This document shows, piece after piece, positions 22,637 through 50,255 of a stretch of 64,000 nucleotides of DNA. The notes under the pieces are model-generated. The model was not told where the DNA came from. It did not search any database and was given only the letters and a program-made list of their open reading frames with translations. Position 1 is the stretch's first letter. The number at the start of each line of letters is the position of its first letter. The translations under genes were made by a program, and so were the position numbers. Origin of the DNA: an uncultured Verrucomicrobiae bacterium (lineage in GTDB: Bacteria > Verrucomicrobiota > Verrucomicrobiia > Limisphaerales > Palsa-1400); contig CAVPOM010000010.1 in NCBI GenBank assembly GCA_963707025.1, positions 32,001-96,000 on the forward strand, given 5' to 3'.

Positions 22637-22673
22637 AACTTTGAGTTTAGGCTGTTTGTTTGTGGGCATGGTT

Positions 22674-22807: not shown

Positions 22808-22823
22808 ATCACGTGTTGTGCCA
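22808..22823 (-). promoter_or_regulatory. sigma54-like promoter with variant -12 (TGAT)
   Basis: TGGCACAACACGTGAT followed by TAAGG; near-identical to 29085-29100. Confidence 0.6.
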
Positions 22824-22941
22824 ACACGCTTTTGAATGGGGACGGAAGCGCCACAAGACCCAGATTTGATTGGCAGGACGGCACATTCTGATGATTTCTT
22901 TTTTGCGCAGTGGTTTATGTGACAGGGTCTCAACACCGTGA

Positions 22942-22978
22942 CGTAATTCGTGGGTTACGAATTCCAATTACGCCGTAA
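22942..22978. promoter_or_regulatory. Enhancer-like palindrome CGTAA-N8-TTACG plus TTACGCCGTAA
   Basis: CGTAAttcgtgggTTACG, about 120 bp upstream of the sigma54-like site. Confidence 0.65.
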
Positions 22979-23118
22979 ACGAATGGTTCCTGTTCACGGC
23001 ATGACACGAAACGCATAAGCCGACACCGCCCCGTAAAGTCCGAAGAAGAATGGCCGATTGCGCTCGCGACACAGCCGGCCATTCTCTTACGGGAATTTGG
23101 AATTGAATTAAGTAATGG

Positions 23119-24874
23119 CTAGTTGGAGACAACTGCCGCGGTGCCGGCAGTTCTGCGATTAAGCTCAGCGATGGCATCCTCAAGGGCGGTCTGGAATTGC
23201 TCCACAACATCTTTGGGCACGAACGCCGTCGGCTGATCTTTGGCAGTAGTCAGCTTGGCGACGACCGGGCCAAATCCGTCGCGCGATGCTGTCTCCTCAA
23301 CCTTGGCCTCGACACGAGCGGCCAGCCGTTGGTCCAAGCGCAAGATTTCCACGGCATGTTCGTAGCCTTTTGCGAATGTCCGTCCGGCAAAGCGGTATTC
23401 CTGGCTGCCTGATCGTGAAACAATTTCCAGCGACAAAGCACACGCCATCAAGCGAGCGGGACGCCCGTTATCTTCGGCGAGTTCGGGGTAATAATTGAGC
23501 AAGTCATCGTCATTCTCGCAGGCTGTGATGAGCAACGACTGGTGCTCACGCGGTAGCGAGCGAAAGGCATCAACACACCCCTTGGCTTCGGGAATTTCCG
23601 CAAGCACGCAGTTTACTTCCTGGGAGAGCATGAGGAATTCCTCTTCAATGTGCTCCAGCCCGATGATGCTCACGGCGTCCGACATGCGGTCCCTGAGCGC
23701 GCGGCAAATACCTGAGTTCGGCCCGTCGGCGGAGAGGACGAATAGCTTTCTGTGACGGTCGCGGCCTGGAATCGGCACGCTCGGTGGCCACTCGGCAGCT
23801 TCTTTGCACAGGCGGTCCGCAAAGAATTTCATCTCGCCATTCAGACTGCCTACGAACTGTTGAACGGTCGTCGGCCAAGGTTGATCGTGATTGAAGATGG
23901 TCTCGACGGACTCTTGGATTGCGTCTTCAGCGCTCTTGCCCTGCGCCGTGGCCGTCAAAACGGTTTCGCGGATTTGGGGCAACTGTTGCTCGACCCTGTG
24001 TATGGCTGCGGCTTCCACAACGTCGGCTGGTGGCAGCGGAATGCCAAGCCAATATGGCGGTTCGTTGCCAGCCAACTTGTCGCTTTCATCGAGCACAAGT
24101 GGAAGCGCGTCCCCGTGACTACTGCCGAGAGTGGTAACGGCTTCGGCAAAATCGTGCGTTCCTTTGAGAACTGCCTGCGACTGGACTTCTTCCGTCGCCG
24201 CTTCGTTGAGCTTCGCCAATGCCTCAAGCGCATTGCGCGCCGCGCCGCGCGATAACCCCGGAATGAAGTAGGCCAGCCAACGTTTTGTCGTGGCCGTGAA
24301 ACGCGAGCGTTGGATTTGATATTCCTCGCGGCGCTGTTTGATCGTGGCGCGTTGCTGCTCCAACAAGGTGGAAAGCGCAGCCTCGTTGGCACGCAACGTC
24401 TGTTCGATTACACCGAGGTCTTCTTGGATGCTCGATAGACTCATCCCGTCTTTGACGGCGGCTGTCGTGACGGTCTGGAGTATTGTGCGCTGTCCTGCGA
24501 CAAACGCGGCCACTTCCTGCTGACATCGAGCCGCGTATTCGCGGATCATTTTGTCGGTGTCGCGCTCCGTCTGCACAATCTGAGCTTCGAGTTGCGCGGG
24601 AGTCAAACGTAGTGCAAGGGCAACTGCGCCGACCAGACCGATTCCAGCGCCGATGGCGAGCAGGTCGCTACGTGTGAGCACGACGGCAACCGCAAACGCC
24701 AAGCCGAGCAGCCCGAGGCAGCATGGCCCAAGGCAGATGACGCCAGCGGTCGCGGCGCGGCAACAATTGGATTGCGCGATTGATGGGTTGGCGCAGGTTC
24801 GTGGCTGAGTTCGGGGGAAGCACCGCGCGGAACGTGTCCACGCTAGTCCGAATTGATGTGAGGTTTAGGTTCAT
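23119..24874 (-). CDS. Membrane-anchored coiled-coil partner of the tubulin-like protein (frameshift near 24720)
   Basis: ORF 24668-24874 joins 23119-24702 by a single frame change. Two hydrophobic helices, then coiled coil. Confidence 0.65.
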
Positions 24875-24913
24875 AATGTTGTAATTTTTGATTTTTTGAG
24901 TGTTGAGGATGGA

Positions 24914-26026
24914 TTAAAGATTACGGTTCAAATGGGCCGTGGCAGCGGCCTTGGCGATTTGAAGATTGCGTTCGCGCGGAACGAAGCACCGGACGAATCC
25001 GCGGCGTGTGAATACAGGCAGTCCATGCCGTCTATTGCTTTGTCCCGGCTTGCTGTCCGCGAAGTGTTGCTCGGTTTCTGCAAGCAGCGGCGTGGCAATG
25101 AAGGCCATTCCGAGCAGGGCGAGGCGGGCTGCGAGTTCGCTGCGGTTGCTCGCGGCCATGAACTCCGTCGTGACTCCGACAACCGAGATGCTGTCGTAGA
25201 TCGGCGCGCCGCCGAAGCGGAACGTCTGCCCGTCGAATGAATGAGCAACGACCCGGTCCGGGAATTCGACTGCCATTGCGGCCTCAATCAGGAGCTTGCC
25301 GGCATTCTCACGCGCGGCCTGCGGATTCACGGAAGATCCGGCTGATGGCAACAGCATGATTAGATGGTTGACGACGCTGATCCCGCGCTGCGCGGCTTCA
25401 TACTTCGTCATCATCGCGTCAACGACTTCCGCGCCGCTCCCGGTTGAGCCCGCCCCGTTCACGAACCGGACCATGACAACCTGGCGAGTGGGCTTCACCC
25501 TGAAACCGGCGTTTTCGCAAGCCGCGACACGGTTCGCGTCGCGAGTGCAAAGGATCGAAGACACGATTGACTCACGCGCCTTTTGGAGATTGGCCAGATA
25601 GAGCGCCTCTCCAAAGGCGGGCTTCTGACAGCAGCCGTCCGCGAGCGTTTCCATTGGCGGCAAATGTTTCAGTTTCTCCGCCAAGGCCCGTGTGCCTTTG
25701 GCGCGCTCGGCCTGTGCCCGAAGCGCAGGAACGCTCGCATCACGGTAGGTCTGGACGATGCCGGGCGGCGCGGGACGTGGCGGCGAACCTGGGATCGCCA
25801 CAGTCAAGTCCTTGGTTGCTTGGGCGGAATCAATTGCTCGCAATGCGATGGGCAGGTGTGGAGCGATCTCTCCATAAGCTTCGTCCAGGCAAGCGTTGAT
25901 GTGGAGGATGACTTGGCAAGGAAACGAGCCAATGCCGGAGAAGGCTACAGGCGTGATCTGTTTCGTTCGGCGCAGCGTGTCCAGCACACCGCCGGAGATG
26001 TTTTTGTTAGCAGAGGTATTGTTCAT
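24914..26026 (-). CDS. Tubulin/FtsZ-like GTPase domain protein (Tubulin_2-type), divergent
   Basis: FSGIGSFPCQVI (GxG loop), LRAIDS, GCCQKPAFGE, GAGSTGSG (variant of the GGGTGSG signature), ARENA. Confidence 0.7.
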   Translation of the reverse strand: MNNTSANKNISGGVLDTLRRTKQITPVAFSGIGSFPCQVILHINACLDEAYGEIAPHLPIALRAIDSAQATKDLTVAIPGSPPRPAPPGIVQTYRDASVPALRAQAERAKGTRALAEKLKHLPPMETLADGCCQKPAFGEALYLANLQKARESIVSSILCTRDANRVAACENAGFRVKPTRQVVMVRFVNGAGSTGSGAEVVDAMMTKYEAAQRGISVVNHLIMLLPSAGSSVNPQAARENAGKLLIEAAMAVEFPDRVVAHSFDGQTFRFGGAPIYDSISVVGVTTEFMAASNRSELAARLALLGMAFIATPLLAETEQHFADSKPGQSNRRHGLPVFTRRGFVRCFVPRERNLQIAKAAATAHLNRNL

Positions 26027-26047
26027 ACGGATTATTTGGTTGTGGGT

Positions 26048-28333
26048 TTATTGTTCGGTGGTTAATGCTTCGGACGCGATTGCGAGTTCGACTGGATCGC
26101 AACTAAGAAGGGTTAGTGTTTTGGTTGAGCCATCTTCGGCCACAAGAGAAATCCGGTCGCCGGGATGCAGCCGCCGCGTGCGGAGAACCGGCGTGTCGTT
26201 GACGGCGACCGATCCAGTTGTCCCCGGTCGCAGCACAAGTCCACGCCAACTGATGGCGATGCGTGGCGACGGGTCGGCGGTGCTTGCATGGTCGCGCACA
26301 AGAGACGATCCCAACAGCAGAACATCTTCCAAGGCGGTCAGTTCTTCCGTTCTCGCCTCCCCTGTCTCCGTTGCGAATGAAAGCGTGTAGGGACGCCCGC
26401 GCAACACTGCGAGCCAAGCAAAGCCAGTCAAGACCAGCACTACGACAGCGCAACCACCAACCAAGGTGAATGCCAACGGCAGGCGCGATTTACTGACAGA
26501 GCGCGGCGGGATCGTCGGACGACTTGCCACATCTGTCGAAGCAAGAGCTTTTGTGTTGGTTTCCGCCACGGCTAAGGCAGGCGCGGTGTGTGCAAGATTC
26601 GTTTTTGAGACCACTTCGGGCGTAAGTGGGCGACTCGAACTTGCAACCGGAGGAGTAGTAACCGGCTGACGCACGTTTTGAGTGGCCACAGACAACGGCA
26701 TTTCAGTTCTGCGTGTGGAATCTGGACTCGTTGCACTCACTGCATTTGTTGCGGGCGATGAGGCCACAACAACGACGGTTACGTTCGTAACTGGGGCTGG
26801 GACTGGTCGGGTAGCTGCGGTTTGTGTGCGACGCAGCTCTTCCATCCGTTGCCGCAATTCTTGCGTGTCTTGTTTCAACTGCGCGAGAGCCTGGCCGTCA
26901 GTGTTTTGTTTGGCCTTTCCATCAGGCAGGACTGTCTCTCCAGTCGGCAATTGCACGCTGCCGTCTGAATTTAGGTGGCAAAGCGCAACATTTTCGCTGG
27001 TTACAATCCCGGAGCGCACCAGGGCGAATGGAAAGGCTGAAAGCTGACGAAGCTCGATCAAGACGACGCTGCCTTCTGAAAATCCTTCACGGATGCGGCT
27101 GCGATAGTCCTGGCGCTTCACAAGATAAATGTTCAATGCCGCTGTCTGGGCATTGGTCGCGCCACAAAGCTTGTGAAGGGTCGTGATGTGCTCTTGGGCG
27201 TCGCGGACTTGCTGGAGCACTGAAGCATAATTCGCGGACAGTTTGCGCTGCTCATCACTGCGCACATAGGCGAAAGGCGATGATTTCAACGAGCTGATGC
27301 GATCGGCGTGGCCTTCGAGGGAAACATCTGCGCGGTCCAATTGGAAACTGGCGAGCGCGAGTTCCTCGGCCGCTTCACGGATGAGTCCGCCACCGAGAAG
27401 TCGCTCTGCCGAATCGGAATCACGACTTGCGTCAGTCAGCCAGTTACGCGCGAGACTCTGTTCGCCGGCAAGACGGTCGCGTGTGTAGAAAACACCTGTC
27501 GGCGCGGCGGCGGCAGTTGCGGCTGAAAGGCAGAGAATAGTCGGCCATACCAAGCAGCAGACTGGCGGGCGACAAACGAACGCCCGTTTGATGAGGCCGA
27601 TCAAACATGCGATGAGGACAAGGCTGGCCAAAAGCGCCGCAATGAAGGCGACGATCTGAGGATCAGGCCGCGATGCGAGAATCGCCTGTAATTTGCTTTG
27701 GAGGGTTTGCACGGCTGCCGTGGAAGGTGCCTGCGCGCCAATGGCGGCGACGCTCGCATTCGTCGTGGTTGCATAGAGACGTTCAACGTATGGAGTCAGC
27801 AAGGGATGGAGTAGCCAGGCGGACACCGTGCTGAAAAACAGCAGTCCCGCCAACACGAGTCCTGATTTGAATGCTCTTCCAAAGAATATGGCCAGCAGCA
27901 ATGCGGCAACCAACGCGGCAGCTACGACCAGCACAGTTCGGTTGCGCATGTATTTGCTCAGATTGTAATGAAGTGCGCTTTGGACCGGTATGAATGCTCC
28001 GGACGCGAGCGGCAACGCATTCGCTTCCACGGTGGCGGTGCGGAGATCAACGACTCCGGTGCTGCGAATCCGCGCGATGCCCTGGCGCATTTGCGGTTCG
28101 GTCGAACGATCAACACTGAATTCCGCAATCAATTGGCCATCCTTCATGTCCACATGCCGCACTTCGCCGACGCGCTGGCCGTCCACCGTCACCGGTGAAT
28201 TCTTTGCGATGCCCTCGTCTGGATTAACGACCGTGTTGTAGCGTTTGTTGCAGCCGGACAGAACGCACACAGATAGAGCGAGCGCGATTGTTCCGGCGAA
28301 CCGTGTTAGCGGGGTGAGTGTAATGAGTTTCAT
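26048..28333 (-). CDS. Lipoprotein/membrane protein: MCE(MlaD)-like domain, TM helices, coiled coil, Pro/Thr linker, TM, C-terminal FHA-like domain
   Basis: Lipobox LSGC. GIAKNSPVTVDGQRVGEV is MCE-like. GSVAVNDTPV....LHPGDRISL is FHA-like. Confidence 0.65.
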   Translation of the reverse strand: MKLITLTPLTRFAGTIALALSVCVLSGCNKRYNTVVNPDEGIAKNSPVTVDGQRVGEVRHVDMKDGQLIAEFSVDRSTEPQMRQGIARIRSTGVVDLRTATVEANALPLASGAFIPVQSALHYNLSKYMRNRTVLVVAAALVAALLLAIFFGRAFKSGLVLAGLLFFSTVSAWLLHPLLTPYVERLYATTTNASVAAIGAQAPSTAAVQTLQSKLQAILASRPDPQIVAFIAALLASLVLIACLIGLIKRAFVCRPPVCCLVWPTILCLSAATAAAAPTGVFYTRDRLAGEQSLARNWLTDASRDSDSAERLLGGGLIREAAEELALASFQLDRADVSLEGHADRISSLKSSPFAYVRSDEQRKLSANYASVLQQVRDAQEHITTLHKLCGATNAQTAALNIYLVKRQDYRSRIREGFSEGSVVLIELRQLSAFPFALVRSGIVTSENVALCHLNSDGSVQLPTGETVLPDGKAKQNTDGQALAQLKQDTQELRQRMEELRRTQTAATRPVPAPVTNVTVVVVASSPATNAVSATSPDSTRRTEMPLSVATQNVRQPVTTPPVASSSRPLTPEVVSKTNLAHTAPALAVAETNTKALASTDVASRPTIPPRSVSKSRLPLAFTLVGGCAVVVLVLTGFAWLAVLRGRPYTLSFATETGEARTEELTALEDVLLLGSSLVRDHASTADPSPRIAISWRGLVLRPGTTGSVAVNDTPVLRTRRLHPGDRISLVAEDGSTKTLTLLSCDPVELAIASEALTTEQ

Positions 28334-28372
28334 AATGTGTGTTTGCGTTTGGGTTTAAGGATGTGAGCGGTT

Positions 28373-28879
28373 TTAGTTGCGAATCGGATCGGCAAGAGGC
28401 TGTTTCGCGAAGATGTGCTCAGCGAGGAGCTCATTGCGGTGCGCTCTCATTTTTTCGAGAGCTATCTCCTTGAGCGCGTCTTTCACTTGCCCGTCGGCGG
28501 CCAGGGCCTCGTTCACCGCAAATTCCAACAGTGGCTTCGGCACAGGGCCGCGCATCAGAAAGTAGTGCGCGATGTAGTGGATATGCCCGTCTGTGGAATT
28601 GACGTGAAAGTGTCCCGTTCCGGCGAGTTTTTGGGTGAGGATCGCGGCAAGTTGCAGCGTCTGATTCCTCGAACCGATTGGGTGGCCTTCCAAGCCGTAG
28701 ATGCGGAGGTATCCCGGCAGACGATGTGCGACCAACAGAACTGCCCCAAGCGGCGTGTAGATGACGAACTCCACGTGCGGACACTCGTCATTGCCATCCA
28801 CGATCTTGGCTTCGTGGAAGTCGTGCCGGGTTTTCAACATCTGGATGATGCCGTTTGAATCTGTGTGGGCGAGGTTCAT
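28373..28879 (-). CDS. Hypothetical protein, possibly YbjN/type III chaperone-like fold
   Basis: 168 aa alpha/beta pattern with GHFHVNSTDGHIHY; ATGA overlap with the upstream ORF. Confidence 0.55.
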   Translation of the reverse strand: MNLAHTDSNGIIQMLKTRHDFHEAKIVDGNDECPHVEFVIYTPLGAVLLVAHRLPGYLRIYGLEGHPIGSRNQTLQLAAILTQKLAGTGHFHVNSTDGHIHYIAHYFLMRGPVPKPLLEFAVNEALAADGQVKDALKEIALEKMRAHRNELLAEHIFAKQPLADPIRN

Positions 28880-29067
28880 GGCTGTGGTTTCGTTCTGGTT
28901 GTTATGCTCGGGATGAAATGCTCCGCGACCCATTCGCTTACTGCGATGCGCGCCCTGGCGACTACTTCCAAGCGCTCTGCGGGTTGCATGGCTGAACTCG
29001 CTTCGCTCAACATCGGCGTGACTCTTATCAGTTCAGCGGTCGGTTTATCTGTTGCTGTCGCATTCAT
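28876..29067 (-). CDS. Small hypothetical protein (63 aa), first gene of the tubulin operon
   Basis: Directly behind a sigma54-like promoter; translationally coupled to the next gene. Confidence 0.55.
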   Translation of the reverse strand: MNATATDKPTAELIRVTPMLSEASSAMQPAERLEVVARARIAVSEWVAEHFIPSITTRTKPQP

Positions 29068-29084
29068 CGTTGCGACAGTCCTTA

Positions 29085-29100
29085 ATCATGGATTGTGCCA
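29085..29100 (-). promoter_or_regulatory. sigma54-like promoter with variant -12 (TGAT)
   Basis: TGGCACAATCCATGAT followed by TAAGG. Confidence 0.6.
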
Positions 29101-29220
29101 ACGGCATTTGAACAGAGGGTAGGAGGACTCACAAAATGCAGATGCGCTAGGCAGGCAGCGTGTTTCTGCGGTTTTCCTTATTCGCAAGGCGGTTTGTCTG
29201 ACGACGCCTCAATGCCTGGA

Positions 29221-29256
29221 CGTAATTTGGGAGTTACGACATTCAATTACGCCGTA
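29221..29256. promoter_or_regulatory. Enhancer-like palindrome CGTAA-N8-TTACG
   Basis: CGTAAtttgggagTTACG then TTACGCCGTA, about 120 bp from the promoter; same layout as 22942. Confidence 0.65.
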
Positions 29257-29459
29257 GGCGTCGGGTTTCTGTTTCGGGCGTGATGCAGAAATCTACGCGC
29301 CGAACAAAGGGAGCAGGAGCGGGGTGCAGAGTGCCGAATATCGGAACGAAAAGCGAACGGCTCAGAAGTGAACCTCTCCCAAGACGGTTAGGGTGATGAC
29401 GAATTGTCTTAGCGGGCTACCATTTTCCCGTCAGCAACCTGCGTGCTTCCAACATCCGG

Positions 29460-31034
29460 TCACGCCAAACTTGCGATCCTTGGAAGATTGCGCAGACCAG
29501 GGCACAGGTTTGAATCCTGTCTCAAAAGGAATTTGATGATCGCCAACCGCTTCTCACCGTCCATCTTTTCCCATTTAGCCTTCACACTAAAAAAATTGGA
29601 GATTTCGGTATGCGTGTTTTTCTCTCTGTGTCCGAGGAGCCTTCCCATGTTGGAAACTGTGGGGCTTTCAATTCCCGAAGCTTTGCATTGCTGATAAGCC
29701 TCTTCATATTTCACCAGTTCCTCGCGGACTTTCTCGATCTCCGATTTTTTCCATTCTTTGGAGTCAGCGTTAAGAGGGAGGTGCTCTGTAGGGGAATGTG
29801 TGGTCGGCGACATTGATTCCTGACCTGCTTGAGATGCGCCCACGACTTCTCTGTGTGGCTGCGTTTGCGTGTGAAAATCCGGCAGGCTACCAACCTGAAC
29901 TTCAGATGTAGATTCGAGGATCAAGGCTCGTTCGATCACGTTGCGCAATTCGCGCACGTTGCCAGGCCAGCGATGAGCCATGAGTTTCTGGCAGGCTGTG
30001 TGCGCGATGGCCTTAACGTTCTTGCCCATCGTTGCGCCGAAGGATTTCAGGAAATGATTAGCCAGCAATAGAATGTCGTTACCGCGCTCACGCAATGGTG
30101 GTATCCGCAGTTGCACCACGTTAAGCCGGTGAAAGAGGTCTTCGCGGAATAGTCCTTCCGCGATGTCCTTTGCCATGTCACGGTTTGTGGCGGCCAAGAG
30201 GCGCACGTTGACCCGCAATTCCTGCGTGCCTCCCACGCGCGTGAACGTGCCATCTTCGAGAAAGCGCAGCAGCTTGGCCTGCAACGGGCGGCTCATGTCG
30301 GCGATTTCGTCGAGGAAAATCGTGCCAGCGTCGGCTTCTTCCACGCGGCCGAACTTCTGCTTGATCGCGCCGGTGAACGCGCCCTTTTCATGACCGAACA
30401 ATTCGCTTTCCAGCAGCGTTTCGGGGATGGCAGCGCAGTTGATGCGAACGTAATTGCAATTGCACCGCTTGCTCGAAGTGTGAAGCGCGCCCGCGGCCAG
30501 TTCCTTGCCTGTGCCGCTTTCTCCGAGGATGAGCACACGCGTGTCAGTGGGCGCGACTTTTTGAATCAGCTCCTTCAACTCGTGCATCTGTTGGCAGTTG
30601 CCGACGATGTTGTCCAAAGTGTAAGCATCGCTTTTCTGTTTGGGCTTATGCGAATTGATTTTAGAGCGCTCCTCGGCGTGTTGAAGAAACCGCCCCACCG
30701 CCGCTTTGTAGTCGCCATTCTTGCCAATGTAGTCAAAAAAGCCCTCTTTAATGGCTTCAACAGCCTTTTCCACCGTAAATGTGTCGGAGTGCGCAGTTAG
30801 CATCATGTAGAGCGTGTCCGGCGAATGCTGCTTAATGTGCTTGCCCGCCTCCAAACCTGTTGTGGGCATTTTGTAATCGAGAAGAGCAGCATGGAAACTG
30901 CGAAGCGTTGTCTCGGTCATCTTGAGCACATCCTCGCCGTCGGATACGGCTACGACATCATGGCCTGCCTTCCGGCAGATTTCTGAAAGCGGTTCGCGCC
31001 ACTCGTATTGGTCGTCTGCAACTAGAATTTTCAT
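29460..31034 (-). CDS. NtrC-family sigma54-dependent response regulator (REC-AAA+) with atypical C-terminal domain
   Basis: MKILVADD..LLDYKMP (REC), GESGTGKE, ESELFGHEKGAFTGA, FLDEI, FREDLFHRLNV, WPGNVREL. Confidence 0.95.
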   Translation of the reverse strand: MKILVADDQYEWREPLSEICRKAGHDVVAVSDGEDVLKMTETTLRSFHAALLDYKMPTTGLEAGKHIKQHSPDTLYMMLTAHSDTFTVEKAVEAIKEGFFDYIGKNGDYKAAVGRFLQHAEERSKINSHKPKQKSDAYTLDNIVGNCQQMHELKELIQKVAPTDTRVLILGESGTGKELAAGALHTSSKRCNCNYVRINCAAIPETLLESELFGHEKGAFTGAIKQKFGRVEEADAGTIFLDEIADMSRPLQAKLLRFLEDGTFTRVGGTQELRVNVRLLAATNRDMAKDIAEGLFREDLFHRLNVVQLRIPPLRERGNDILLLANHFLKSFGATMGKNVKAIAHTACQKLMAHRWPGNVRELRNVIERALILESTSEVQVGSLPDFHTQTQPHREVVGASQAGQESMSPTTHSPTEHLPLNADSKEWKKSEIEKVREELVKYEEAYQQCKASGIESPTVSNMGRLLGHREKNTHTEISNFFSVKAKWEKMDGEKRLAIIKFLLRQDSNLCPGLRNLPRIASLA

Positions 31035-32989
31035 GATTGTCGGTTCTGAGGGATTTCAATGGTGATTTTGACCGCTGGCGCTGCGACAACGGATATGTTC
31101 CATCGCAAGTGACGCAGACTTTGCTCCACAATTTCCAGTCCCCGCTTCTCTGGTTCAGTATTTGGTGATGAAGCAACGCCATTCAGAAAATCAACCCATT
31201 GGCGCTTATGCTTTGGCCATTCAGACTTCTGGAAAAAAACAACCCGGTGCAAACCATCGTGTTGACCAACATGCACGGCAAAGTCCCCTCTCTGCGATGC
31301 GTTGTGCCAGAGATTCCAGAACACGAGAAACACGTCTTCCATCGCATCCTGAGGGGGCAAGAAGTCCGCTACTGAATCAATTTCGAGTGATGCGTGCCCC
31401 ACGCCAGAGGTTTCATGCTCTTTCAACCAAGCTAGGATTCCGGCTATGCGCTTTCCCTGAAGAGGCTGGTGCATTTTGCTCATCACAAAGTCAAGTGTCG
31501 CGAAAAGCACTTCGGATGTTTTTTCAGCATCTGCGACGAAATCGCGAGCCTTCCCAGAAATCTGGGTCTCATCTTGGATTAGAGCCGCGTGGAGCAACGG
31601 TCCCGGCTTAAGATTTACTATACTATGTCGATGCCCCAAAAACCTGGCGCGGATACGACGCTCTTCGTTTGCAAATGCAGCTTTCGCTCTTTCGCACGCT
31701 TCCTTGGTTTCAAGTCCGCCCAGCGGATCATAAGTCCATTCTGGATTAAAGTAAGGGTTGGGTTCTGTGCCGATGAAAACACGCCTTCCGTCAGGAAGAT
31801 TGAGTGGTTCCCCATTTCCACGCGTATCTTTGTCCGTCAAATAGACGTGAGGAAATGGCAGATTGGGAAGCAGGTTCATGCTTCCTTTATTGAACCGCGA
31901 CATGATTGATTGCAAATCCGACTTGGCAATCTCATCGGAGAAAAGTCTCTCAATAAAATTGAGGTATAGGGCCTTAGCTTCCGTGCGGAGCATCGCGCCA
32001 ATTCGCGGTATGACATCACTGTAAAAGTGAAATATGTCATAAAAGCCTGGAATATCTGAATCTTTGAAAAATCTGAGCAGCACAATCCAGGCTACCCCCT
32101 CAACGTGGATGGGCACGTAAACCCGATGCATCAATGCCAGTGCCTTGAAACCCGGGCATTCAGTTGCGGCTGATAAATCTTGATCCTTCAATGGATCAGC
32201 TAATGTCACGGTTCCTGTTTGAAACGCCATAGCCGCTTCCCGGCCAAAAATATGACAAAACTGTTCAATCAAATCGCTTGTTTGAGTCGCGCTGCCGCCG
32301 AGGAATGAGCGTTGAGTTTTCGAAAGCACGCATTGAGCTTGATGCGTGGCTCCCGCCGCACCAATGCCCATCTTGCCTTTTGCCACGAATAGGAATGGGA
32401 ACAGGTTGGTCGTGTGCAAGTTTCCGCGCCCTCGCAGACGAAAATGAGGCGAGTCCTCCAAGATTTTCCAAACGTTGCTGAACACGGCCTCGCAAGTCGT
32501 ATCCCAATCCGTTTGTTCAACAGCATTTTCATAAGCTGTCTTGCATGCAGTTCTGTTCTTGGAAGCACCGACCGCCTCCGTCGCCATTTTCAATGATTGT
32601 CCAAATTGTTTGCCTTCGTGGGGCGAGTTGAAATCTGGATGGGCGAAAAGCTGGACGAAAGCCAAACGGGCGTTCTCGTCGCTCAAGAATGACGCGCCAA
32701 TCGAACGATAGCAGGCAACGACTCGTTTTGAATGCGGGATAAGCACGCCGCCTTCCTCGCAAAATTTCGTCTCGACATGCGGATGGGTTGAGAAGATCGG
32801 GCGCCGTGTGTTCGCACTTTCCCAAAGGGTGATCACAGTTGGATCGGGTTTGTTAAGGAAAATCTTCAGGTAGTCGCAAAACGGCAAAAGAAACGCTTTC
32901 CTATACAGCCAGTAATCCAGACCAAGCAGCGAGCGCCTAATGAGTGTTTGTCGCTCGACCTGCTGCGAATCTGTGAGCGTTCCCGTCAT
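31031..32989 (-). CDS. Soluble sensor protein with a degenerate histidine-kinase-like C-terminus
   Basis: H-box-like FLGHRHSIVNL, N-box VFWNLWHNA, G2-like KRGLEIV. No clear TM helix. Coupled (ATGA) to the regulator. Confidence 0.6.
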   Translation of the reverse strand: MTGTLTDSQQVERQTLIRRSLLGLDYWLYRKAFLLPFCDYLKIFLNKPDPTVITLWESANTRRPIFSTHPHVETKFCEEGGVLIPHSKRVVACYRSIGASFLSDENARLAFVQLFAHPDFNSPHEGKQFGQSLKMATEAVGASKNRTACKTAYENAVEQTDWDTTCEAVFSNVWKILEDSPHFRLRGRGNLHTTNLFPFLFVAKGKMGIGAAGATHQAQCVLSKTQRSFLGGSATQTSDLIEQFCHIFGREAAMAFQTGTVTLADPLKDQDLSAATECPGFKALALMHRVYVPIHVEGVAWIVLLRFFKDSDIPGFYDIFHFYSDVIPRIGAMLRTEAKALYLNFIERLFSDEIAKSDLQSIMSRFNKGSMNLLPNLPFPHVYLTDKDTRGNGEPLNLPDGRRVFIGTEPNPYFNPEWTYDPLGGLETKEACERAKAAFANEERRIRARFLGHRHSIVNLKPGPLLHAALIQDETQISGKARDFVADAEKTSEVLFATLDFVMSKMHQPLQGKRIAGILAWLKEHETSGVGHASLEIDSVADFLPPQDAMEDVFLVFWNLWHNASQRGDFAVHVGQHDGLHRVVFFQKSEWPKHKRQWVDFLNGVASSPNTEPEKRGLEIVEQSLRHLRWNISVVAAPAVKITIEIPQNRQS

Positions 32990-33699
32990 TGTGGGGATTG
33001 GTGTGCCGCATTGTCGCTCACAATCTGCCCGTCTTGCAAGGTGACAATTCTGTCGGCAAACGACTCAACCCGGTTCAGATCGTGCGTCACATAAACGATG
33101 GTCTTCCCCAAGTTTTTCAGTTCGCCAATCAGTTTGAGACAGATGCCGGCGTTCGTCGCGTCCAAGGCGGCCAGCGGTTCATCGAGCAGAATCACTTTGG
33201 CCGGGCGCAGGCTGGCGATTAAGATTGCCAGAATTTGCCGCTGCCCGCCCAACAACGTCTTTGCCTGTTGTTGAAGTCGTTCAGCCAACCCCAGGGGCAG
33301 CAGCAGGGAACGGTGTCTGGCGGCCAAGGCCCTTTTATTCAGGCGGCGGGCGCGCGCCTCATCGTCGGCCACGACCAGGTTTTCAAAAACCGTCATCGTT
33401 GGCACACTGCCAATCAACGGGTCTTGGTGAACGTGAAAAACAGCTTTCGCAATGCCCGCCGGCCGCAACCTGCCTGCCGGTTTCCCTTCGATCAAAACCT
33501 CGCCTTGTTCCGGCACCAACAGACAACTTAAAGCCCGCAAGAGGGTTGTCTTGCCGCTGCCATTGGGTCCCGTGACAACCAGTGCCTGACCGGCCGGAAT
33601 TTTCAGGCATATTCCATCAATTGCCCGGACTGTTTGTCCCCAGCGCGAGAACGTCACCAGCAGATCGTGAACTTCAACAATGTCGTGACCATTGTTCAT
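32986..33699 (-). CDS. ABC transporter ATP-binding protein
   Basis: GPNGSGKT, signature variant LLGGQRQ, LLDEP, VTHD. Confidence 0.92.
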   Translation of the reverse strand: MNNGHDIVEVHDLLVTFSRWGQTVRAIDGICLKIPAGQALVVTGPNGSGKTTLLRALSCLLVPEQGEVLIEGKPAGRLRPAGIAKAVFHVHQDPLIGSVPTMTVFENLVVADDEARARRLNKRALAARHRSLLLPLGLAERLQQQAKTLLGGQRQILAILIASLRPAKVILLDEPLAALDATNAGICLKLIGELKNLGKTIVYVTHDLNRVESFADRIVTLQDGQIVSDNAAHQSPQ

Positions 33700-34606
33700 T
33701 TGAGATCCTCGAGAAAAAGCTGTCCGTTCTTTGTCCCCGCAGCGCGATCACCAGGAGAACGAGAACGGCGGTGGCAAGCTTCAAATCCGTTGCGGCCAAT
33801 CCCATGCTCAAAGCGTAGCTCACCAAAACTTCGTAAACCACCGCCCCCGTCACGGCGGCCAGAAGCACGTATGATTGGTAGGAAAACCACTTTTCGGGAA
33901 CCAGTTTCTCGCCAATCGTCATTGCGGCCAATGCCAGAATCAGCACCCCCTGTCCCATCCCAACGTCGGCAAATCCTTGATTCATGGTTGCCAAAATGCC
34001 ACCCAATGCCGCCAGACCGTTGGTTACAGCCAAGCCGGTAATTACGTTGGCTGGAACATAAACCCCGAGCAGCCGGGCATATTCCGGGTTTGCACCGGCA
34101 GCGCGTAATCGCAAGCCCGGTCGGGACGAGAGGCTGGCTGCTGCGGCGATGCCAACAGCGCCGACAAGGACGCCCAGCAACATGATTGTGCCAACATGGA
34201 ACCGGCTGTTCATAAGATGATTCAACGGCTGAACAAAATCGAAAAGGGATGGCTGGGTTAAAAGACCTATGTTCGATGCTCCCATGATACGAAGGCTCAT
34301 GGTGTAGGTGATTGCCACAACAATTATGCCGGCGAGCAGTTTGTTCAACTTGAACCGAACATGAAAATAAGCCGTCAAACACCCAGCCAGGGCACCGGCG
34401 GTGACTCCAAGGCAAACAGCGATTGGAACAGTCACCCCATTCTTAACAAGGATTCCATAAGTTGCGGCTCCAAGCGGAAAAGAGCCTTCAATCGTAATAT
34501 CAGGAAAGGCCAGAACACGAAATGCCACGGCGAAAGCGATAACGGGCCAGGCGTAGATCAAGCCAGTCACCAGACCAACATCGAGTGGAATGAAGGAATT
34601 CATCAC
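33674..34606 (-). CDS. ABC transporter permease (aromatic amino-acid/TrpX-type system)
   Basis: FPDITIEGSFPLG, LLAGII, GLRLRAAG.N, QGFADVGMGQG; multiple TM helices. Confidence 0.9.
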   Translation of the reverse strand: MMNSFIPLDVGLVTGLIYAWPVIAFAVAFRVLAFPDITIEGSFPLGAATYGILVKNGVTVPIAVCLGVTAGALAGCLTAYFHVRFKLNKLLAGIIVVAITYTMSLRIMGASNIGLLTQPSLFDFVQPLNHLMNSRFHVGTIMLLGVLVGAVGIAAAASLSSRPGLRLRAAGANPEYARLLGVYVPANVITGLAVTNGLAALGGILATMNQGFADVGMGQGVLILALAAMTIGEKLVPEKWFSYQSYVLLAAVTGAVVYEVLVSYALSMGLAATDLKLATAVLVLLVIALRGQRTDSFFSRISNEQWSRHC

Positions 34607-35595
34607 TTGATTTCATCGAATACTTTAGTGGCATTGGTGACAACATCGGGCGGCAAGGGGTCGTGCATGAGTTCCGCAGCTTTTTTGTTTAGATAGATTT
34701 GTCCCGATTCAGGCTGGACAACCGGCAGGTTTTTTTCTCCATGCAGAACTTTCACGACGAGTTTCCCGGTCTCGCGCCCGATTTCGTAATATCCAGCAGA
34801 AACAGCCCCGATGGCCCCTTTTTCCACGGAGCCGCTGTCACATGCAAAAACGGGAATTTTGTTCTCAATGCCGGTCTTCACCGCTCCCGCAATGCCTGCG
34901 GCCACCGTGTTATCAGTGGAAATCAGCAGAACGTCCACGCGGCCAACCAAACCAGCCGCAACGCGGTATTCTTCAGACGTGGAGTTCACTGGCCCCTCCA
35001 CCACTTCAAAGCCGAACGTCGGTGCAATCTCTTCGATTTTTTTGACCGCGAATTGAGAAGAGGCTTCACCCGGATTAAAGAGCAGGCCAAGCCGCTTAGC
35101 GTTCGGGTTGATTCGCCGAATCAGCTTCAATTGCTCACCATAGGGGATCGCGTCCGTCGTGCCAGTGACCTTTGGATTAGAGCCATCCAAAGAATCAACA
35201 ACGCCCGCACCGACTGGATCGGTTAATGCGCCAAAAACGATCTCGCCCTTAAACTTCTTCACGATGGCTTGAGCAACCGGGGTGGAAATCGCCACTACAA
35301 CATCAGGATTTCGAGCAGCCAACTCGTCCGCGATGGCAGCAACCTGTCCCATATTCCCTTCCGCGTTGAGCAGGATATATCGCGCCCCAATCCCATTGGC
35401 GTAACCGTCACTCGTGAGTTCATCAATGACCCCTTTCTGGACGGCATCAAGGATTGGGTGCGTCTGGAGAGTGGCGATGGCAATGACCTTTTGATCCGCA
35501 CTGCCTCCGCCGTTGTTGATTCTCTCGAAAATGAATACCCCAGCGACAATGACGGCCACCAGGAGCGCAATCACTAACTTGTTGGATTTTTTCAT
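34603..35595 (-). CDS. ABC transporter substrate-binding protein (Trp/Tyr-binding-like)
   Basis: N-terminal anchor; THPILDA...G, NAEG, ISTPVAQ, TDPVGAG, FNPGEASS, TDNTV. Confidence 0.9.
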   Translation of the reverse strand: MKKSNKLVIALLVAVIVAGVFIFERINNGGGSADQKVIAIATLQTHPILDAVQKGVIDELTSDGYANGIGARYILLNAEGNMGQVAAIADELAARNPDVVVAISTPVAQAIVKKFKGEIVFGALTDPVGAGVVDSLDGSNPKVTGTTDAIPYGEQLKLIRRINPNAKRLGLLFNPGEASSQFAVKKIEEIAPTFGFEVVEGPVNSTSEEYRVAAGLVGRVDVLLISTDNTVAAGIAGAVKTGIENKIPVFACDSGSVEKGAIGAVSAGYYEIGRETGKLVVKVLHGEKNLPVVQPESGQIYLNKKAAELMHDPLPPDVVTNATKVFDEIK

Positions 35596-35608
35596 AGGTG
35601 TTCGTTGG

Positions 35609-37237
35609 TCAGTTTCTTTCGGCAGATGTGATCGTTAAAAAGTCGGTGGTTCGCTGTTTCTGGCGAAAATGTTTTGCGCTGATCCTGCCGTCCGCCTGGG
35701 TTTGCCCGGTCTCGCTGACCAGATATTTTCCGTATTTGAAAACTTTAATGCCAGCAAATTCCTCTTCGTCGTCGAGATCTGTCAAAACGCCGCTAATTCT
35801 CATCACGGCCTTCAAATCAACGATTTTATCGGCGTCGCTGTCATCGGTTTCAAACTGGCTCGCTTCAAGCACTTTGGGTTTGAGTATGCCAATGGGAATA
35901 CCGCCTGTCCCGTGAGCGAAGTGCTTCCCCAACCATTTGAGCACCGGGGCTTGCTTGGCCTCCCATTTGGTGAAGGACTCGAAAATGTCTCGCGGGAATG
36001 TTTTGTTTTTGCGCCAACCAGACTCGAAATGGCTGGTTCCAGGATAAACAACGTGCAACTGTGGAAAGATGGTAATTGTCTTTCCACGACGAGCGGCGGC
36101 TTGTCCCATTTCCTTCAAAATATTCTTGGTCTGTGTGTGGTCTTCGTCTGTTTCATCAGGCAGACCGAATTGGAGGTTTATGTAGCAGCTAACATTGGAT
36201 TCCAAAAGTGCTGGAACCACTTTCCGTTTCAGGCGTTCGAGATAACGCTCTGGATTTGGCGCTTTGTTTAGATACTCCAAATGTCTGGGAACCAGCGATT
36301 CGACGCCGAGATACACCGCCTCTGCGCCCGCGCGCTCCAGCAGCGACACAAGTCCCTCACGATCCATTGACTCAACGCGGGTCTGGCAATCCCACCAGAA
36401 TTCAAGCCCGTCGCGGCGCAATTCAGCCAGAGCACCGCATAGTTCATCAGTTCGGCGAGGCGTGTGAGCAAAAAAATTATCCTCGATGGCAATCCGGGAA
36501 AAACCGAGTTCCACCAACTGGCGTATGTCTTGGCACACCCGGGCCACACTCCGCGCTCTGATCTTCTGATTTGATACCGAACAGAAGGCGCATTTGAGCG
36601 GGCAGCCACGCGCGCTCACATAGGTTACATGGCCGAACTTACCCGGAGTGCCGCTAATACTGTTTCCCTCGAAGGTCAGCGGGATCGAATCCAACTGGCT
36701 TTCATTGAGGAGGGCAGGCGGTTGATTAAAGTTAACTGAACCTTTGTGCCAGAATGCCAATCCGGGGGTAGAACAGACGCGCGGAAATCGGTGAAGAAAT
36801 TCAGTCATCGCGATTTCACCTTCACCGACCACCACGTAGTCAACTGTGTTCTGGTGGTGCGTAAGCACAATTTCAGCGTCAGCACTGGCATGAGGCCCCC
36901 CGAAAACGGTCTTGAATTCCACACCAGGAATCGAAAGCGATTTGAAAGCTGAAGCTGTAGCCAACGCCGACTGATAAGAAGCCGTTGTCGTGGTGATGCC
37001 AACCACCGTCTGGCTTGAAAATGAAATGCGACCTGAAATGTGACTTTGCCGGATCACTTCTTGCAGGCTGGATAACGGAGTTGAACTCAAGTCAAGGAGT
37101 TGCACCTCGATTTTCGGCACATTCGCCTGATTCGCCTGAATGTAATTGGCGAGGCTGATCAACCCTGTGGCAAACCCGCCCAACAATCCGAATTGCGGGG
37201 GCATCACAAGAATCAAAGTTAAATCTGCATTTTCCAT
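35609..37237 (-). CDS. B12-binding radical SAM enzyme
   Basis: Cobalamin-binding motifs VGITTTT, FGGPHAS, VVGEGE; ARGCPLKCAFC (CxxxCxxC); IEDNF; LGVES; FGLPDET. Confidence 0.92.
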   Translation of the reverse strand: MENADLTLILVMPPQFGLLGGFATGLISLANYIQANQANVPKIEVQLLDLSSTPLSSLQEVIRQSHISGRISFSSQTVVGITTTTASYQSALATASAFKSLSIPGVEFKTVFGGPHASADAEIVLTHHQNTVDYVVVGEGEIAMTEFLHRFPRVCSTPGLAFWHKGSVNFNQPPALLNESQLDSIPLTFEGNSISGTPGKFGHVTYVSARGCPLKCAFCSVSNQKIRARSVARVCQDIRQLVELGFSRIAIEDNFFAHTPRRTDELCGALAELRRDGLEFWWDCQTRVESMDREGLVSLLERAGAEAVYLGVESLVPRHLEYLNKAPNPERYLERLKRKVVPALLESNVSCYINLQFGLPDETDEDHTQTKNILKEMGQAAARRGKTITIFPQLHVVYPGTSHFESGWRKNKTFPRDIFESFTKWEAKQAPVLKWLGKHFAHGTGGIPIGILKPKVLEASQFETDDSDADKIVDLKAVMRISGVLTDLDDEEEFAGIKVFKYGKYLVSETGQTQADGRISAKHFRQKQRTTDFLTITSAERN

Positions 37238-37271
37238 GGGCACAATGAGCGTGCTGCTCTGATAACCCAAT

Positions 37272-37287
37272 CGCAGGTGAAGTGCCA
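37272..37287 (-). promoter_or_regulatory. sigma54 promoter for the radical SAM-ABC-kinase-regulator operon
   Basis: TGGCACTTCACCTGCG (GG-N10-GC), about 35 bp upstream of ATG 37237. Confidence 0.7.
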
Positions 37288-37362
37288 TGCTGCCGATGCA
37301 CCACAAAAACGATGAAAACGAACAGTTTCCGATGATTTATGCCTGCCCCGATGCCTTCGTGC

Positions 37363-37399
37363 CGTAACGGTGCGGTTACGCCGTAATCCCTGCGTTACG
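37363..37399. promoter_or_regulatory. Tandem enhancer-like palindromes (2x CGTAA-N8-TTACG)
   Basis: CGTAAcggtgcggTTACG-c-CGTAAtccctgcgTTACG between divergent sigma54 promoters. Confidence 0.7.
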
Positions 37400-37635
37400 A
37401 ATTTGACAGCCAAAGAGACGCCCATTCCTTGTAGATTTCTGTCTTTGTCCGACACAAAACATGCGTGACAGAGTTCTCGGATACGACACTGATTTTAGCA
37501 ACGCAAATGCTCCTAAGAACGGCGAAATGCAAGGCTTGCAGGCACCGAGCCGGCAACAACACCCTTCCAAGAAAATCAACTAGAGGTCGTTGTCCGGTCT
37601 GTGTAGACGGGCAACGTCAATTTTCCACCACTCAT

Positions 37636-37650
37636 TGGCATCACAATTGC
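37636..37650 (+). promoter_or_regulatory. sigma54 promoter for the plus-strand gene run
   Basis: TGGCATCACAATTGC (GG-N10-GC, with TTGC). Confidence 0.7.
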
Positions 37651-37702
37651 CATACATGATTTCGCGGTCATCAAACAGTCGAATGCAACGCAATTAGCAA
37701 TT

Positions 37703-38014
37703 ATGGACATTATCATTATCAAAGACGTATTACCACGTTGTGTGACTTGGCGAGACGCTGCGGAAACAGTTCGGCAGAATTTGAATCCCCGCAGGATTGA
37801 GAACAGGGATGGGGTTAACGTTGTAAATGCTGTTTTGTGGTCTGAGATCCGTTCTTTCTTTGAAACATCTGGTCTGAAAAATCAAGACGCAGAGCAGGCA
37901 GTGTTTCAGTTGCGAGATTTAGGATTCATTAAGCATCAGGGAAAAGTGAAGGTTGGGGAGACTCGTTGGTCGGGGTCTGACATTGTTGATTGGGTCATGC
38001 AATTTCAGTTCTGA
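37703..38014 (+). CDS. Small hypothetical protein (possible winged helix)
   Basis: 103-aa ORF directly after the sigma54 site; AEQAVFQLRDLGFIK helix-strand pattern. Confidence 0.55.
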   Translation: MDIIIIKDVLPRCVTWRDAAETVRQNLNPRRIENRDGVNVVNAVLWSEIRSFFETSGLKNQDAEQAVFQLRDLGFIKHQGKVKVGETRWSGSDIVDWVMQFQF

Positions 38015-38158
38015 TTTTGTGCCGTTACCACAAAGACCTCGCACCGATGGAATCAACAACTGGTCGGCATTGCTTGTTTGACCGCTCGGAGTTGTTTGCC
38101 GAGTATGAGCGGCGGCAGCCACCCGCAAGATAATTCATCCTGAAAGTATTTTTGAACA

Positions 38159-38713
38159 ATGAACACGCTACCCACTTTGGAGACGGAGCGATTGGTGCTT
38201 CGCCCTTTCATGCTGCCTGATGCGCCAGAAGTGCAACGGCTGGCTGGCGACAAAGATGTGGCATCTACGACTTCACGCATTCCCCATCCCTACAAAGACG
38301 GAATGGCTGAAAAATGGATTGATTCCCATGCTGGGAATTTTGCTAGGCGCGAGGGGATCTCGCTCGCAATCACCTTGCGCACGGATGGCTCGCTGGTGGG
38401 GGCGGTTGGTTTGATAATTTCCGAGGAAAACTCACGAGCGGAGCTCGGCTATTGGATCGGCAGGCCGTTTTGGAACCACGGCTATGCCACTGAGGCCGGG
38501 CGTGCGATGGTGAAATACGGTTTTCAAGAATTGGGCTTGGAGCGAATCCATGCACAACATTTGAAGCGAAATCCAGCCTCGGGCGCAGTCCTGGCCAAAA
38601 TCGGCCTGAGCCACGAAGGATGCCTACGCCAGCACGTGAAAAAATGGGGGATGTTCGAGGACGTCGAAGTGTGGAGCGCGCTCCGTGCCGAAAATATCGG
38701 TCCGGTCGGTTGA
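38159..38713 (+). CDS. GNAT N-acetyltransferase, RimJ/RimL family
   Basis: LETERLVLRPF, AELGYWIGRPFWNHGYATEA, NPASGAVLAKIG. Confidence 0.95.
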   Translation: MNTLPTLETERLVLRPFMLPDAPEVQRLAGDKDVASTTSRIPHPYKDGMAEKWIDSHAGNFARREGISLAITLRTDGSLVGAVGLIISEENSRAELGYWIGRPFWNHGYATEAGRAMVKYGFQELGLERIHAQHLKRNPASGAVLAKIGLSHEGCLRQHVKKWGMFEDVEVWSALRAENIGPVG

Positions 38714-38830
38714 TCTGCTCGATGAAATAAAAACCAAGCTGTTCCGCGCGCAACTTGCACGGAACTGGCGGTCGGAAATGCGTGACTTGGAGAGCATGTT
38801 TTTGTAAAATTGTCAAACCTGAAATCGCTT

Positions 38831-40123: not shown

Positions 40124-40146
40124 GTGAAAATAATCAGGATTTCAAT

Positions 40147-40934: not shown

Positions 40935-41275
40935 GCGCAACGAACAAATACGGCGAACTGGAGGGCAGTGCATGCCCCAAATGCGGCGATCCAATCAAAC
41001 CGCAATGGGTGGCGTGTCCCGCTTGTGGCGCGACACTCAACAATGGCTCGGGCACTGAAACAAAAAAGACTTCATCACAACCGGATCGGTTTACATGCCC
41101 GGGTTGCGGTGAGAGAGCGACGGCCAATGAGGACGCAAAGTTTTGCGAGACGTGCGCGGCATTCGTCCACGAAGACTGCATGGTTCGGGCACCTGAGCGG
41201 CTAAAAGATGGCAAGACGTATTGCGAATACTATTGTCCGGTGTGCAATAAAATTCTGAATTGTGATGTGAAATGA
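40931..41275 (+). CDS. Tagged zinc-ribbon protein 1 (plus PHD/RING-like Cys/His cluster)
   Basis: MSATNKYGELEGSACPKC..WVACPAC; CPGC..CETC..VHEDC..CPVC. Confidence 0.85.
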   Translation: MSATNKYGELEGSACPKCGDPIKPQWVACPACGATLNNGSGTETKKTSSQPDRFTCPGCGERATANEDAKFCETCAAFVHEDCMVRAPERLKDGKTYCEYYCPVCNKILNCDVK

Positions 41276-41304
41276 CACGAGCGGGTCAACTGGAACGGTA
41301 AATC

Positions 41305-41664: not shown

Positions 41665-41666
41665 AG

Positions 41667-43315: not shown

Positions 43316-43328
43316 AAAGATAAGACTT

Positions 43329-43984: not shown

Positions 43985-43997
43985 AGACATCCCTACC

Positions 43998-50253: not shown

Positions 50254-50255
50254 AA

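Follow-up and report, generated by a model that had tools for sequence, protein, structure and literature searches.

The stretch of DNA analysed here (the window: 64,000 nucleotides of an uncultured Verrucomicrobiae bacterium, GenBank assembly GCA_963707025.1, contig CAVPOM010000010.1, positions 32,001 to 96,000) contains a six-gene operon encoding, in order, a B12 radical SAM enzyme, the binding protein, permease and ATPase of an ABC importer, a protein of 652 amino acids (aa) and a sigma54-dependent activator. Palindromes of the form CGTAA-N8-TTACG and sigma54 (-24/-12) promoter boxes lie before this operon and before two further transcription units (Table 1). The comparisons described below make it probable that the palindromes are upstream activator sites, through which the local activator would drive its own six-gene operon and two plug-in output promoters carried on a mobile element. 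The source genome of the window, G000, is 6.96 Mb in size and 88% complete; other compared genomes, loci and proteins carry labels beginning with G, L and P, respectively.

Table 1. Coordinates of the features in the window (N8 site, CGTAA-N8-TTACG; junction, (T/C)TACG-N-CGTAA; HTH, helix-turn-helix; ORF, open reading frame).
Feature	Position	Strand	Remarks
Output gene: Calx-beta repeats and C39-like peptidase, predicted secreted	19721..22669	-	Pfam
Output sigma54 box 2	22808..22823	-	duplicate, TGAT at -12; box score 15.5/18
Output enhancer 2	22942..22978	.	duplicate of enhancer 1; N8 site 22942-22959, junction 22968-22978
Output operon: 186-aa ORF, MlaD-domain membrane protein, tubulin-like protein, 527-aa helical protein	23119..28933	-	last three syntenic in G033
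Output sigma54 box 1	29085..29100	-	TGGCA-N7-TGAT, then TAAGG; like the box in G033 and L036
Output enhancer 1	29221..29257	.	N8 site 29221-29238, extra half-site, junction 29247-29257
Sigma54 activator: receiver (Asp53), AAA+ with GAFTGA, unnamed C-terminal HTH (about residues 430-524)	29460..31034	-	Pfam, alignment, profile search, fold
Predicted soluble GAF-type histidine kinase, 652 aa	31031..32989	-	Atlas features GAF and HATPase_c, score 0.94
ABC ATPase	32986..33699	-	Pfam ABC_tran
ABC permease	33696..34606	-	ORF 33674-34606; Pfam BPD_transp_2
ABC substrate-binding protein, aromatic-amino-acid type	34603..35595	-	Asp253/Tyr269 at two selectivity positions
B12-binding radical SAM enzyme, ATG 37237	35609..37237	-	Pfam B12-binding and Radical_SAM; predicted signal maker or modifier
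Sigma54 box of the module's own operon	37272..37287	-	TGGCA-N7-TGC; 99 bp from junction; predicted start about 37261
Tandem enhancer	37363..37399	.	sites 37363-37380 and 37382-37399, 19-bp period; TTACG-C-CGTAA junction 37376-37386
Divergent sigma54-like box	37636..37651	+	237 bp from tandem enhancer; enhancer link uncertain
103-aa ORF, GNAT, then ubiquitin-like cluster: zinc ribbons, E2-like, JAB, HerA, ThiF/E1, TPR	37703..54059	+	possible output

A sequence-only reading of this DNA had reported four exact, intergenic copies of CGTAA-N8-TTACG, at 22942, 29221, 37363 and 37382, each paired with a TGGCA-type promoter. All four copies were found again, all intergenic, and the boxes lie where they had been placed, at 22808-22823(-), 29085-29100(-), 37272-37287(-) and 37636-37651(+). 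One hundred dinucleotide shuffles of the window gave a mean of 0.01 copies and a maximum of 1. The genome-wide scan proposed in that reading showed the motif to be uncommon, with five copies in G000 against about 1.5 expected from pentamer counts, and the same palindrome with other spacer lengths occurs 0-4 times each. Four of the five copies are concentrated within 14.5 kb; the fifth, at C11:48675, has no nearby sigma54-like box scoring above 14.5/18. Boxes 22808, 29085, 37272 and 37636 lie 119, 121, 76 and 237 bp, respectively, from the nearest palindrome, and box 37272 is intergenic if the radical SAM gene starts at ATG 37237, not at the TTG of the mechanically called ORF. A second palindrome, (T/C)TACG-N-CGTAA, had been missed and is present at all three loci (22968, 29247 and 37376); it is referred to here as the junction.

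The four promoter boxes claimed earlier are all present, but they amount to only two independent arrangements, since the segments 22759-22994 and 29033-29273 are copies of one sequence (70% alike over 243 nt, E 7e-20) and the sites at 37363 and 37382 form a tandem pair. Boxes were scored on an 18-point consensus scale, with random 300-bp windows as background. The box at 37287(-) reads TGGCA-N7-TGC and scores 17/18, a value reached in 0.3% of random windows; that at 37636(+) has the expected GG and GC and scores 16.5/18 (0.5-1.8%). The description as -24/-12 boxes fits these two, but 22823(-) and 29100(-) read TGAT at -12. Searching with a loose sigma54 pattern was uninformative, with 46 matches against 25 expected and all four boxes missed. 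G000 has RpoN (one PF04552 match, on C5) and 15 sigma54 activators. Transcription starts are predicted near 37261(-), 29074(-), 22797(-) and 37663(+). Just past the predicted starts of the two duplicated promoters an inverted repeat, TCGCA...TGCGA, is kept in the duplication (22781-22798 and 29058-29075) and could form a leader hairpin.

Because the pattern had been picked by eye, the test was taken from other genomes. Scans with a radical SAM alignment gave 56 loci; 42 of these were tested, after exclusion of eight distant enzymes and six loci without upstream DNA. The composite element was defined, after the data had been seen, as two GTAA-N8-TTAC sites with a 19-bp period and at most three mismatches, plus a box 108-122 nt downstream. 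It was found in 16 of the 42 loci (nine with a canonical activator, two with a regulator whose ATPase is non-GAFTGA, and five with the regulator off the contig), which include all nine loci with a canonical sigma54 activator on the contig. It was missing from all 11 loci in which Pfam finds no AAA domain in the gene at the regulator position. One of these loci has too little upstream DNA, so that the informative count is 0/10; the genes concerned were assigned by position and Pfam saw no receiver in them. In all of G000 the composite occurs once, at the window's own site. These counts support the view that motif and sigma54 box form a conserved unit before the regulator's own operon.

The spacing within the element is nearly fixed. 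The junction begins 99 bp before the box in 10 of 14 motif-bearing promoters and 98-101 bp before it in 13, and this distance is kept at radical SAM identities of 49-91% and, in L036, L037 and L041, despite extra DNA between box and gene. Mean matches to the four half-sites over the 14 promoters are 4.4, 4.8, 4.7 and 3.6 of 5, and in the six distant promoters scarcely anything besides half-sites and box is invariant. This combination of fixed spacing with little other invariance indicates that the sites and box are under selection, the central two half-sites being best kept. G033, from another family, has the whole module followed by MlaD and tubulin-like genes, with motif and box at both promoter positions and an activator only 43% identical over the matched part. 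In G607, a complete genome of another order, the box and central junction are retained. The motif alone is not diagnostic, because a stricter form of it turns up no more often than controls do, in 12 of 61 genomes if G000 is counted, and in G019 the pattern is found seven times, identical, inside an unrelated repeat. The remaining junction matches of G000 and G033 fall mostly inside ORFs, and a box at one of the conserved distances accompanies none of them. L049, with a single perfect site, failed the composite test. In L005, L004 and L008 (G019, G014 and G004) the same 18-mer pattern is carried by a GTAAC-rich repeat element unrelated to the module, and at L100:1410-1460, in G607, four half-sites stand in a row with 1-bp spacers around the junction, a layout unlike N8.

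The C-terminal tail of the local activator is the candidate reader of these sites. A tail-family profile, used in a six-frame search of the genome, matches only this protein in G000, where the other 14 activators have Fis-type tails by inspection. The tail has no Pfam match; it belongs to a family of 22 representatives, and an alignment of 20 members gives a confident model of a helical domain whose core is HTH-like (predicted local distance difference test score, pLDDT, 90.8). Residues 1-55 of this domain can be superposed on HTH bundles, though weakly (Z about 4.2, root-mean-square deviation 2.2-2.4), Foldseek gave no significant match, and a wide structure search gave Z values up to 4.9, with no family assignable; a full-length fold is of low confidence (pLDDT 44.6). 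Most of the PDB entries matched by the tail profile are HTH regulators; 1G2H, the DNA-binding domain of TyrR, ranks second (E 0.0025), tied with TetR/MarR HTHs. For HTH_50, which was an Atlas lead (0.79), none of the 20 tail members had a match among the 25 families shown. The tail thus appears to be an unnamed HTH family, weakly like TyrR. TyrR double boxes lie 1 bp apart. The TyrR box is TGTAAA-N6-TTTACA, an 18-bp palindrome with G-N14-C (PMC4374768, available in part), and all four window sites hold this G-N14-C pair. GcsR of Pseudomonas aeruginosa, according to the available part of PMC4894688, is a TyrR-like sigma54 activator acting on tandem 18-bp sites, TGTAACG-N4-CGTTCCG, before an RpoN box.

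L060 departs from the window in both respects: its activator-position protein has another tail, and at the corresponding place, 78-100 bp before three sigma54 boxes, stands another palindrome (ATCACGTGAT-like), which L047 and L072 share. The L060 sister lineage offers a natural control, in which tail and palindrome change together. No local ATPase activator was seen at L060, where the module (5875-21085) has a regulator consisting of receiver and HTH only and a methyltransferase added between the radical SAM enzyme and the binding protein; the boxes, at 9470(-), 9845(+) and 18442(+), each have their own ATCACGTGAT-like palindrome, and JAB-ThiF genes lie on both sides. At L052:9075-10928 and L061:9116-10816, and likewise in P0022 and P0024, a receiver joined to a classical-looking non-GAFTGA AAA stands behind a sigma54-like box and tandem sites. 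The L052 regulator has the same HTH tail, and the central ATPase seems to be swappable.

A second promoter type, with the junction 145-157 bp before the box and TAAGG or AAAGG after it, occurs twice in the window and also follows the activator gene in G033, L036 and L043. Four of five such output-type promoters have TGAT at -12. In the available part of PMC11997794, TTGAAT is one of two -12 consensuses for Pseudomonas putida sigma54 in vitro and is absent from the most active group, so that the TGAT output promoters are plausibly real but weaker. The cargo behind this promoter varies: in the window it is the Calx-beta/C39 peptidase and the tubulin-like operon, in G033 the tubulin-like operon, in L036 a P4-type primase and in L043 an Fn3-repeat protein. 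Since the downstream genes differ between lineages, the output promoter appears to behave as a portable plug. The sequence-only reading had counted both window outputs among the regulator's targets. For the peptidase this was borne out in that motif and box are present, as a copy of the tubulin-operon promoter. For the tubulin operon, motif and box also lie upstream in the independent G033, but the label itself is weak: Tubulin_2 (PF13809) matches three of six homologues of the tubulin-like protein (best E 4e-4) and does not match the window protein, for which there was no PDB match and no match in the genome-contig collection searched. In the stretches examined, neither the exact motif nor the module accompanies the tubulin-like operons of G361, G277 and G327. 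At L036:12721-14343 the P4-type primase lies directly under the output promoter, and primase remnants lie past the module at L038:10703-11763; in these loci the switch may control mobile-element replication.

Among the module proteins, the radical SAM enzyme falls under every NCBIfam cut-off and no curated family fits it. The binding protein has as its nearest solved structures 6HNI, 3LKV and 3LFT (CD0873, VC_1101 and SP1069; E 1e-41 to 1e-49), whose ligands are Tyr, Phe and Trp. Two positions govern ligand selectivity in aromatic amino-acid binding proteins, and the Tyr binder has Glu and Tyr there (PMC6816091, seen in part); across the aligned homologues of the present protein they are Asp in 34/35 and Tyr in 35/35, a pattern like that of the Tyr binder. 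The protein thus shares with CD0873, VC_1101 and SP1069, as far as they are covered in the available text of PMC6816091, a Tyr at the Trp-excluding position and an acidic residue at the Tyr-hydroxyl position, and differs in that Asp replaces Glu and in belonging to a regulatory cassette. A tyrosine-type pocket is predicted, in which Asp in place of Glu could accommodate a bulkier or modified tyrosine. The 652-aa predicted kinase has no Pfam match, and its His, N box and G2 box are conserved in 10/10 aligned homologues. The local regulator had been called an NtrC-family protein. This description holds for its receiver (PF00072, with an invariant phospho-acceptor Asp53), its AAA+ domain (Sigma54_activat PF00158, E 2e-67, GAFTGA intact) and its predicted partner kinase, but not for the tail, which is not Fis-type (no HTH_8/PF02954 match). 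RNA contigs of a relative, from one peat run, cover 29.3-37.2 kb only and are mostly 88-96% alike in the pieces listed; they are weak evidence for module expression, as starts are invisible in contigs and DNA carry-over is possible. Between close relatives the ABC genes (88-96%) have changed far less than the kinase and regulator (51-72%).

The window belongs to an integrative element. The contig to its left carries integrases and secretion-type genes, as judged by eye from the starts of ORFs, and a coupling protein and relaxase lie at 54-61 kb. A coupling-gene fragment at 19244-19396 (88-93% identical pieces) lies left of the block and the gene at 54079-55687, in two ORFs, to the right; its homologue in L043 is a single 494-aa ORF. 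The module is rare, being found in 2/401 genomes of the order sample and 2/401 of the phylum sample, G000 included in each. Plasmids gave no module at E 1e-60, and viral contigs only two distant radical SAM enzymes. Further left, at 1661-19223, lies a defence-type cluster with MksE/condensin-like genes, type I restriction-modification, TIR beside an Argonaute-like ORF (by eye), an HNH nuclease and a WYL regulator.

The sequence-only reading had also included the divergent ubiquitin-like operon, and in its full version the same activator, bound to the symmetric enhancer at 37363-37399, drives box 37636, so that 19.7-54 kb forms one programme. We regard this extension as possible but doubtful. 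The box is a good match of a kind rare in random windows, all four half-sites of the enhancer are perfect, and the 260 bp from junction to box exceed the output geometry of 155 bp by 105 bp, or ten turns, which keeps the helical phase, although a phase match is weak evidence, with a chance of about 30% by itself. The L060 sister module has its own palindrome at boxes facing a divergent JAB/ThiF set and a downstream JAB-ThiF gene, and the coupling-protein fragment and the gene at 54079 bracket the whole block. Set against this, the divergent unit has no site of its own, neither palindrome recurring (at most one mismatch) between 37400 and 54.1 kb, and a divergent box of at least 16/18 was present in none of the 15 other loci within up to 600 bp. 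In alignments the similarity to relatives stops about 20 bp past the distal site, and the cluster proper is preceded by two short genes, by a hairpin at 38741-38765 and by a sigma70-like site of chance level at 38782-38810. The JAB protein finds no match in G033, although the module is present there; no close orthologue of the JAB-E2 protein was seen in 400 genomes of the order (12 weak JAB-only matches), and viral contigs gave no E1 match. L043 has, after the coupling protein, another gene and then the module, which suggests that the ubiquitin-like cluster is a separately acquired insertion at a cargo position. The 103-aa ORF directly after the divergent box (37703-38014) has no family match, and its C-terminal half looks winged-helix-like by eye. 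The HerA-like ATPase at 46092-48312 is in two overlapping ORFs, through a frameshift or a natural split.

Several findings qualify the evidence or weigh against the local activator as the reader of the sites. The duplication at 22.8 and 29.1 kb weakens the raw site count, and the scores of its boxes are reached in 9-13% of random windows. Some of the loci compared are near copies (L028/L042; L027/L038/L039/L040), and on the radical SAM tree (39 rows) the motif label needs four changes, with 11 positive rows in one clade; given this clustering, the correlation of motif and activator rests on few events. The fourth half-site is lost in G607, so that dimers may in fact read the N1 junction rather than the N8 palindrome, alternatives that sequence alone cannot distinguish. 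Recognition helices differ between tail-family members having the same motif, the G1 box of the predicted kinase is atypical, without the usual Asp, and the module shows no sign of an exporter or a precursor peptide; no precursor-peptide gene fits, because the predicted leader is about 24 nt and the gap between radical SAM and binding-protein genes is 13 nt. Perfect sites in L038/L040 and L043 go with tails outside the family profile (hhalign probability 2% and 0.2%), that of L038 showing a faint resemblance at its end only. L052 and L061 keep the sites and box with a non-GAFTGA regulator ATPase, and the L060 regulator has no ATPase; at such loci a sigma54 box can evidently be kept even where no canonical activator is encoded nearby. 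The L038/L040, L043, L052/L061 and L060 cases leave some probability to a trans-acting factor: another activator would read the sites, with the local regulator as a fast-changing passenger, modulator or antagonist. The faster divergence of kinase and regulator than of the ABC genes would fit such a role, and a host factor could be missing from an incomplete G000. We nevertheless consider this improbable, as no second target was seen in G000, G033 or G607, the composite occurring once per genome, and as the tail is unique to the local protein in G000 while another tail goes with another palindrome. Still more remote is the idea that the palindromes are recombination sites (an 8-bp spacer, lox- or Xer-like) or parts of a repeat element with no transcriptional role. 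The spacer geometry, the G019 repeat, the pattern in 12/61 genomes and the module boundary beside the distal site are compatible with it, but the 99-bp spacing to a -24/-12 box is fixed in distant lineages, spacers differ among copies, and the duplication takes in sequence to the left and right of the sites; its probability is very low.

Of the autoactivation proposed for the local activator, what has been observed is the gene content, the sites, which in different lineages keep a fixed distance from -24/-12 boxes, and outputs that vary with the lineage. In the mechanism we propose, the ABC importer would bring in a tyrosine-like molecule, which the cytoplasmic GAF kinase would sense, phosphorylating the activator. 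Activator dimers would bind the tandem GTAA/TTAC half-sites through the TyrR-like HTH and, from a distance of 99 bp, open the sigma54 promoter of their own operon in a positive feedback loop; the output promoters, with sites 145-157 bp off and the weaker TGAT, would fire later or only at a high activator level. If the B12 radical SAM enzyme of the same operon makes the sensed molecule, the result would be a quorum-sensing-like switch, which is the most speculative step. An enzyme, importer, soluble sensor and activator on one autoactivated promoter, with non-metabolic outputs, plausibly have the layout of an autoinducing circuit. The complete form of this idea is an undescribed mobile quorum-sensing system across several phyla, in which a modified tyrosine is made by the B12 radical SAM enzyme, imported and read by the GAF kinase, the activator with its new HTH family sustains a self-amplifying loop, and a duplicable plug-in promoter puts arbitrary cargo (tubulin-like, secreted peptidase, primase or ubiquitin-like genes) under population control, with lineage-specific pairs of tail and palindrome; we would call it rather unlikely as a whole. 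A sensor of nutrients or toxins, importing an environmental tyrosine-like compound that the radical SAM enzyme converts, with no self-made signal, is a real possibility, though short of probable. An importer, an enzyme and a two-component pair under positive control are a common catabolic layout. No exporter was seen in the module, the ligand-pocket residues are constant across lineages, and boxes of the TyrR/GcsR type normally serve amino-acid metabolism (PMC4374768 and PMC4894688, each available in part). Against a nutrient sensor, there is a single enzyme with no downstream catabolic genes, the module is rare, patchy and on mobile DNA, and the outputs are secreted proteins, a tubulin-like operon, a primase and JAB/E1 genes, not metabolism.

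The regulatory logic of sigma54 activator, enhancer and autoregulation is already known. What the sites add is an exact candidate operator for an unnamed HTH family and a conserved six-gene cassette, of which the literature searched gave no description, most subscription journals being outside the search. The duplicated output promoter illustrates how a mobile element can bring further cargo under a single switch. Should the sensed ligand prove to be the product of the radical SAM enzyme, it would be a new chemical class of bacterial signal, and would tell when uncultured Verrucomicrobiota express their tubulin-like and ubiquitin-like systems, which are poorly understood.

With NtrC-type group I bacterial enhancer-binding protein systems the module shares the receiver-AAA+-HTH arrangement, an adjacent kinase gene and sites 75-160 bp upstream of -24/-12; it differs in the non-Fis tail, the cotranscribed B12 radical SAM enzyme and importer, and in falling below every NCBIfam cut-off. 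In the autoinducing quorum-sensing cassettes agr, lux and lsr, enzyme, uptake, sensor and activator are under positive feedback. The predicted layout of the module would resemble theirs, with separate output promoters and a fast-diverging sensor and regulator, whereas no precursor peptide or exporter was found in it, its kinase is a cytoplasmic GAF protein and its output is through sigma54. The sensory N-terminus of TyrR is of the ACT/PAS type. The activator has a receiver in that place, intact GAFTGA with sigma54 boxes, and no Pfam HTH_50 match, and the NCBIfam TyrR model matches only its AAA part, far below cut-off. Shared with TyrR and its boxes (PDB 1G2H; the available part of PMC4374768) are the 18-bp G-N14-C palindrome, adjacent strong and weak boxes, the weak profile match of the tail and, through the binding protein, a link to aromatic amino acids. 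GcsR resembles the present system in being a sigma54 activator with tandem 18-bp sites before an RpoN box, matching in site length and GTAA arm; it is glycine-responsive and serves a metabolic operon (PMC4894688), whereas the present activator carries a receiver and an unnamed, extended HTH tail, is paired with a partner kinase, is predicted to regulate its own operon and has outputs outside metabolism. Judged by its sequence, the module works like an NtrC-type enhancer system with TyrR/GcsR-like sites, and its activator is neither of the TyrR family nor Fis-tailed.

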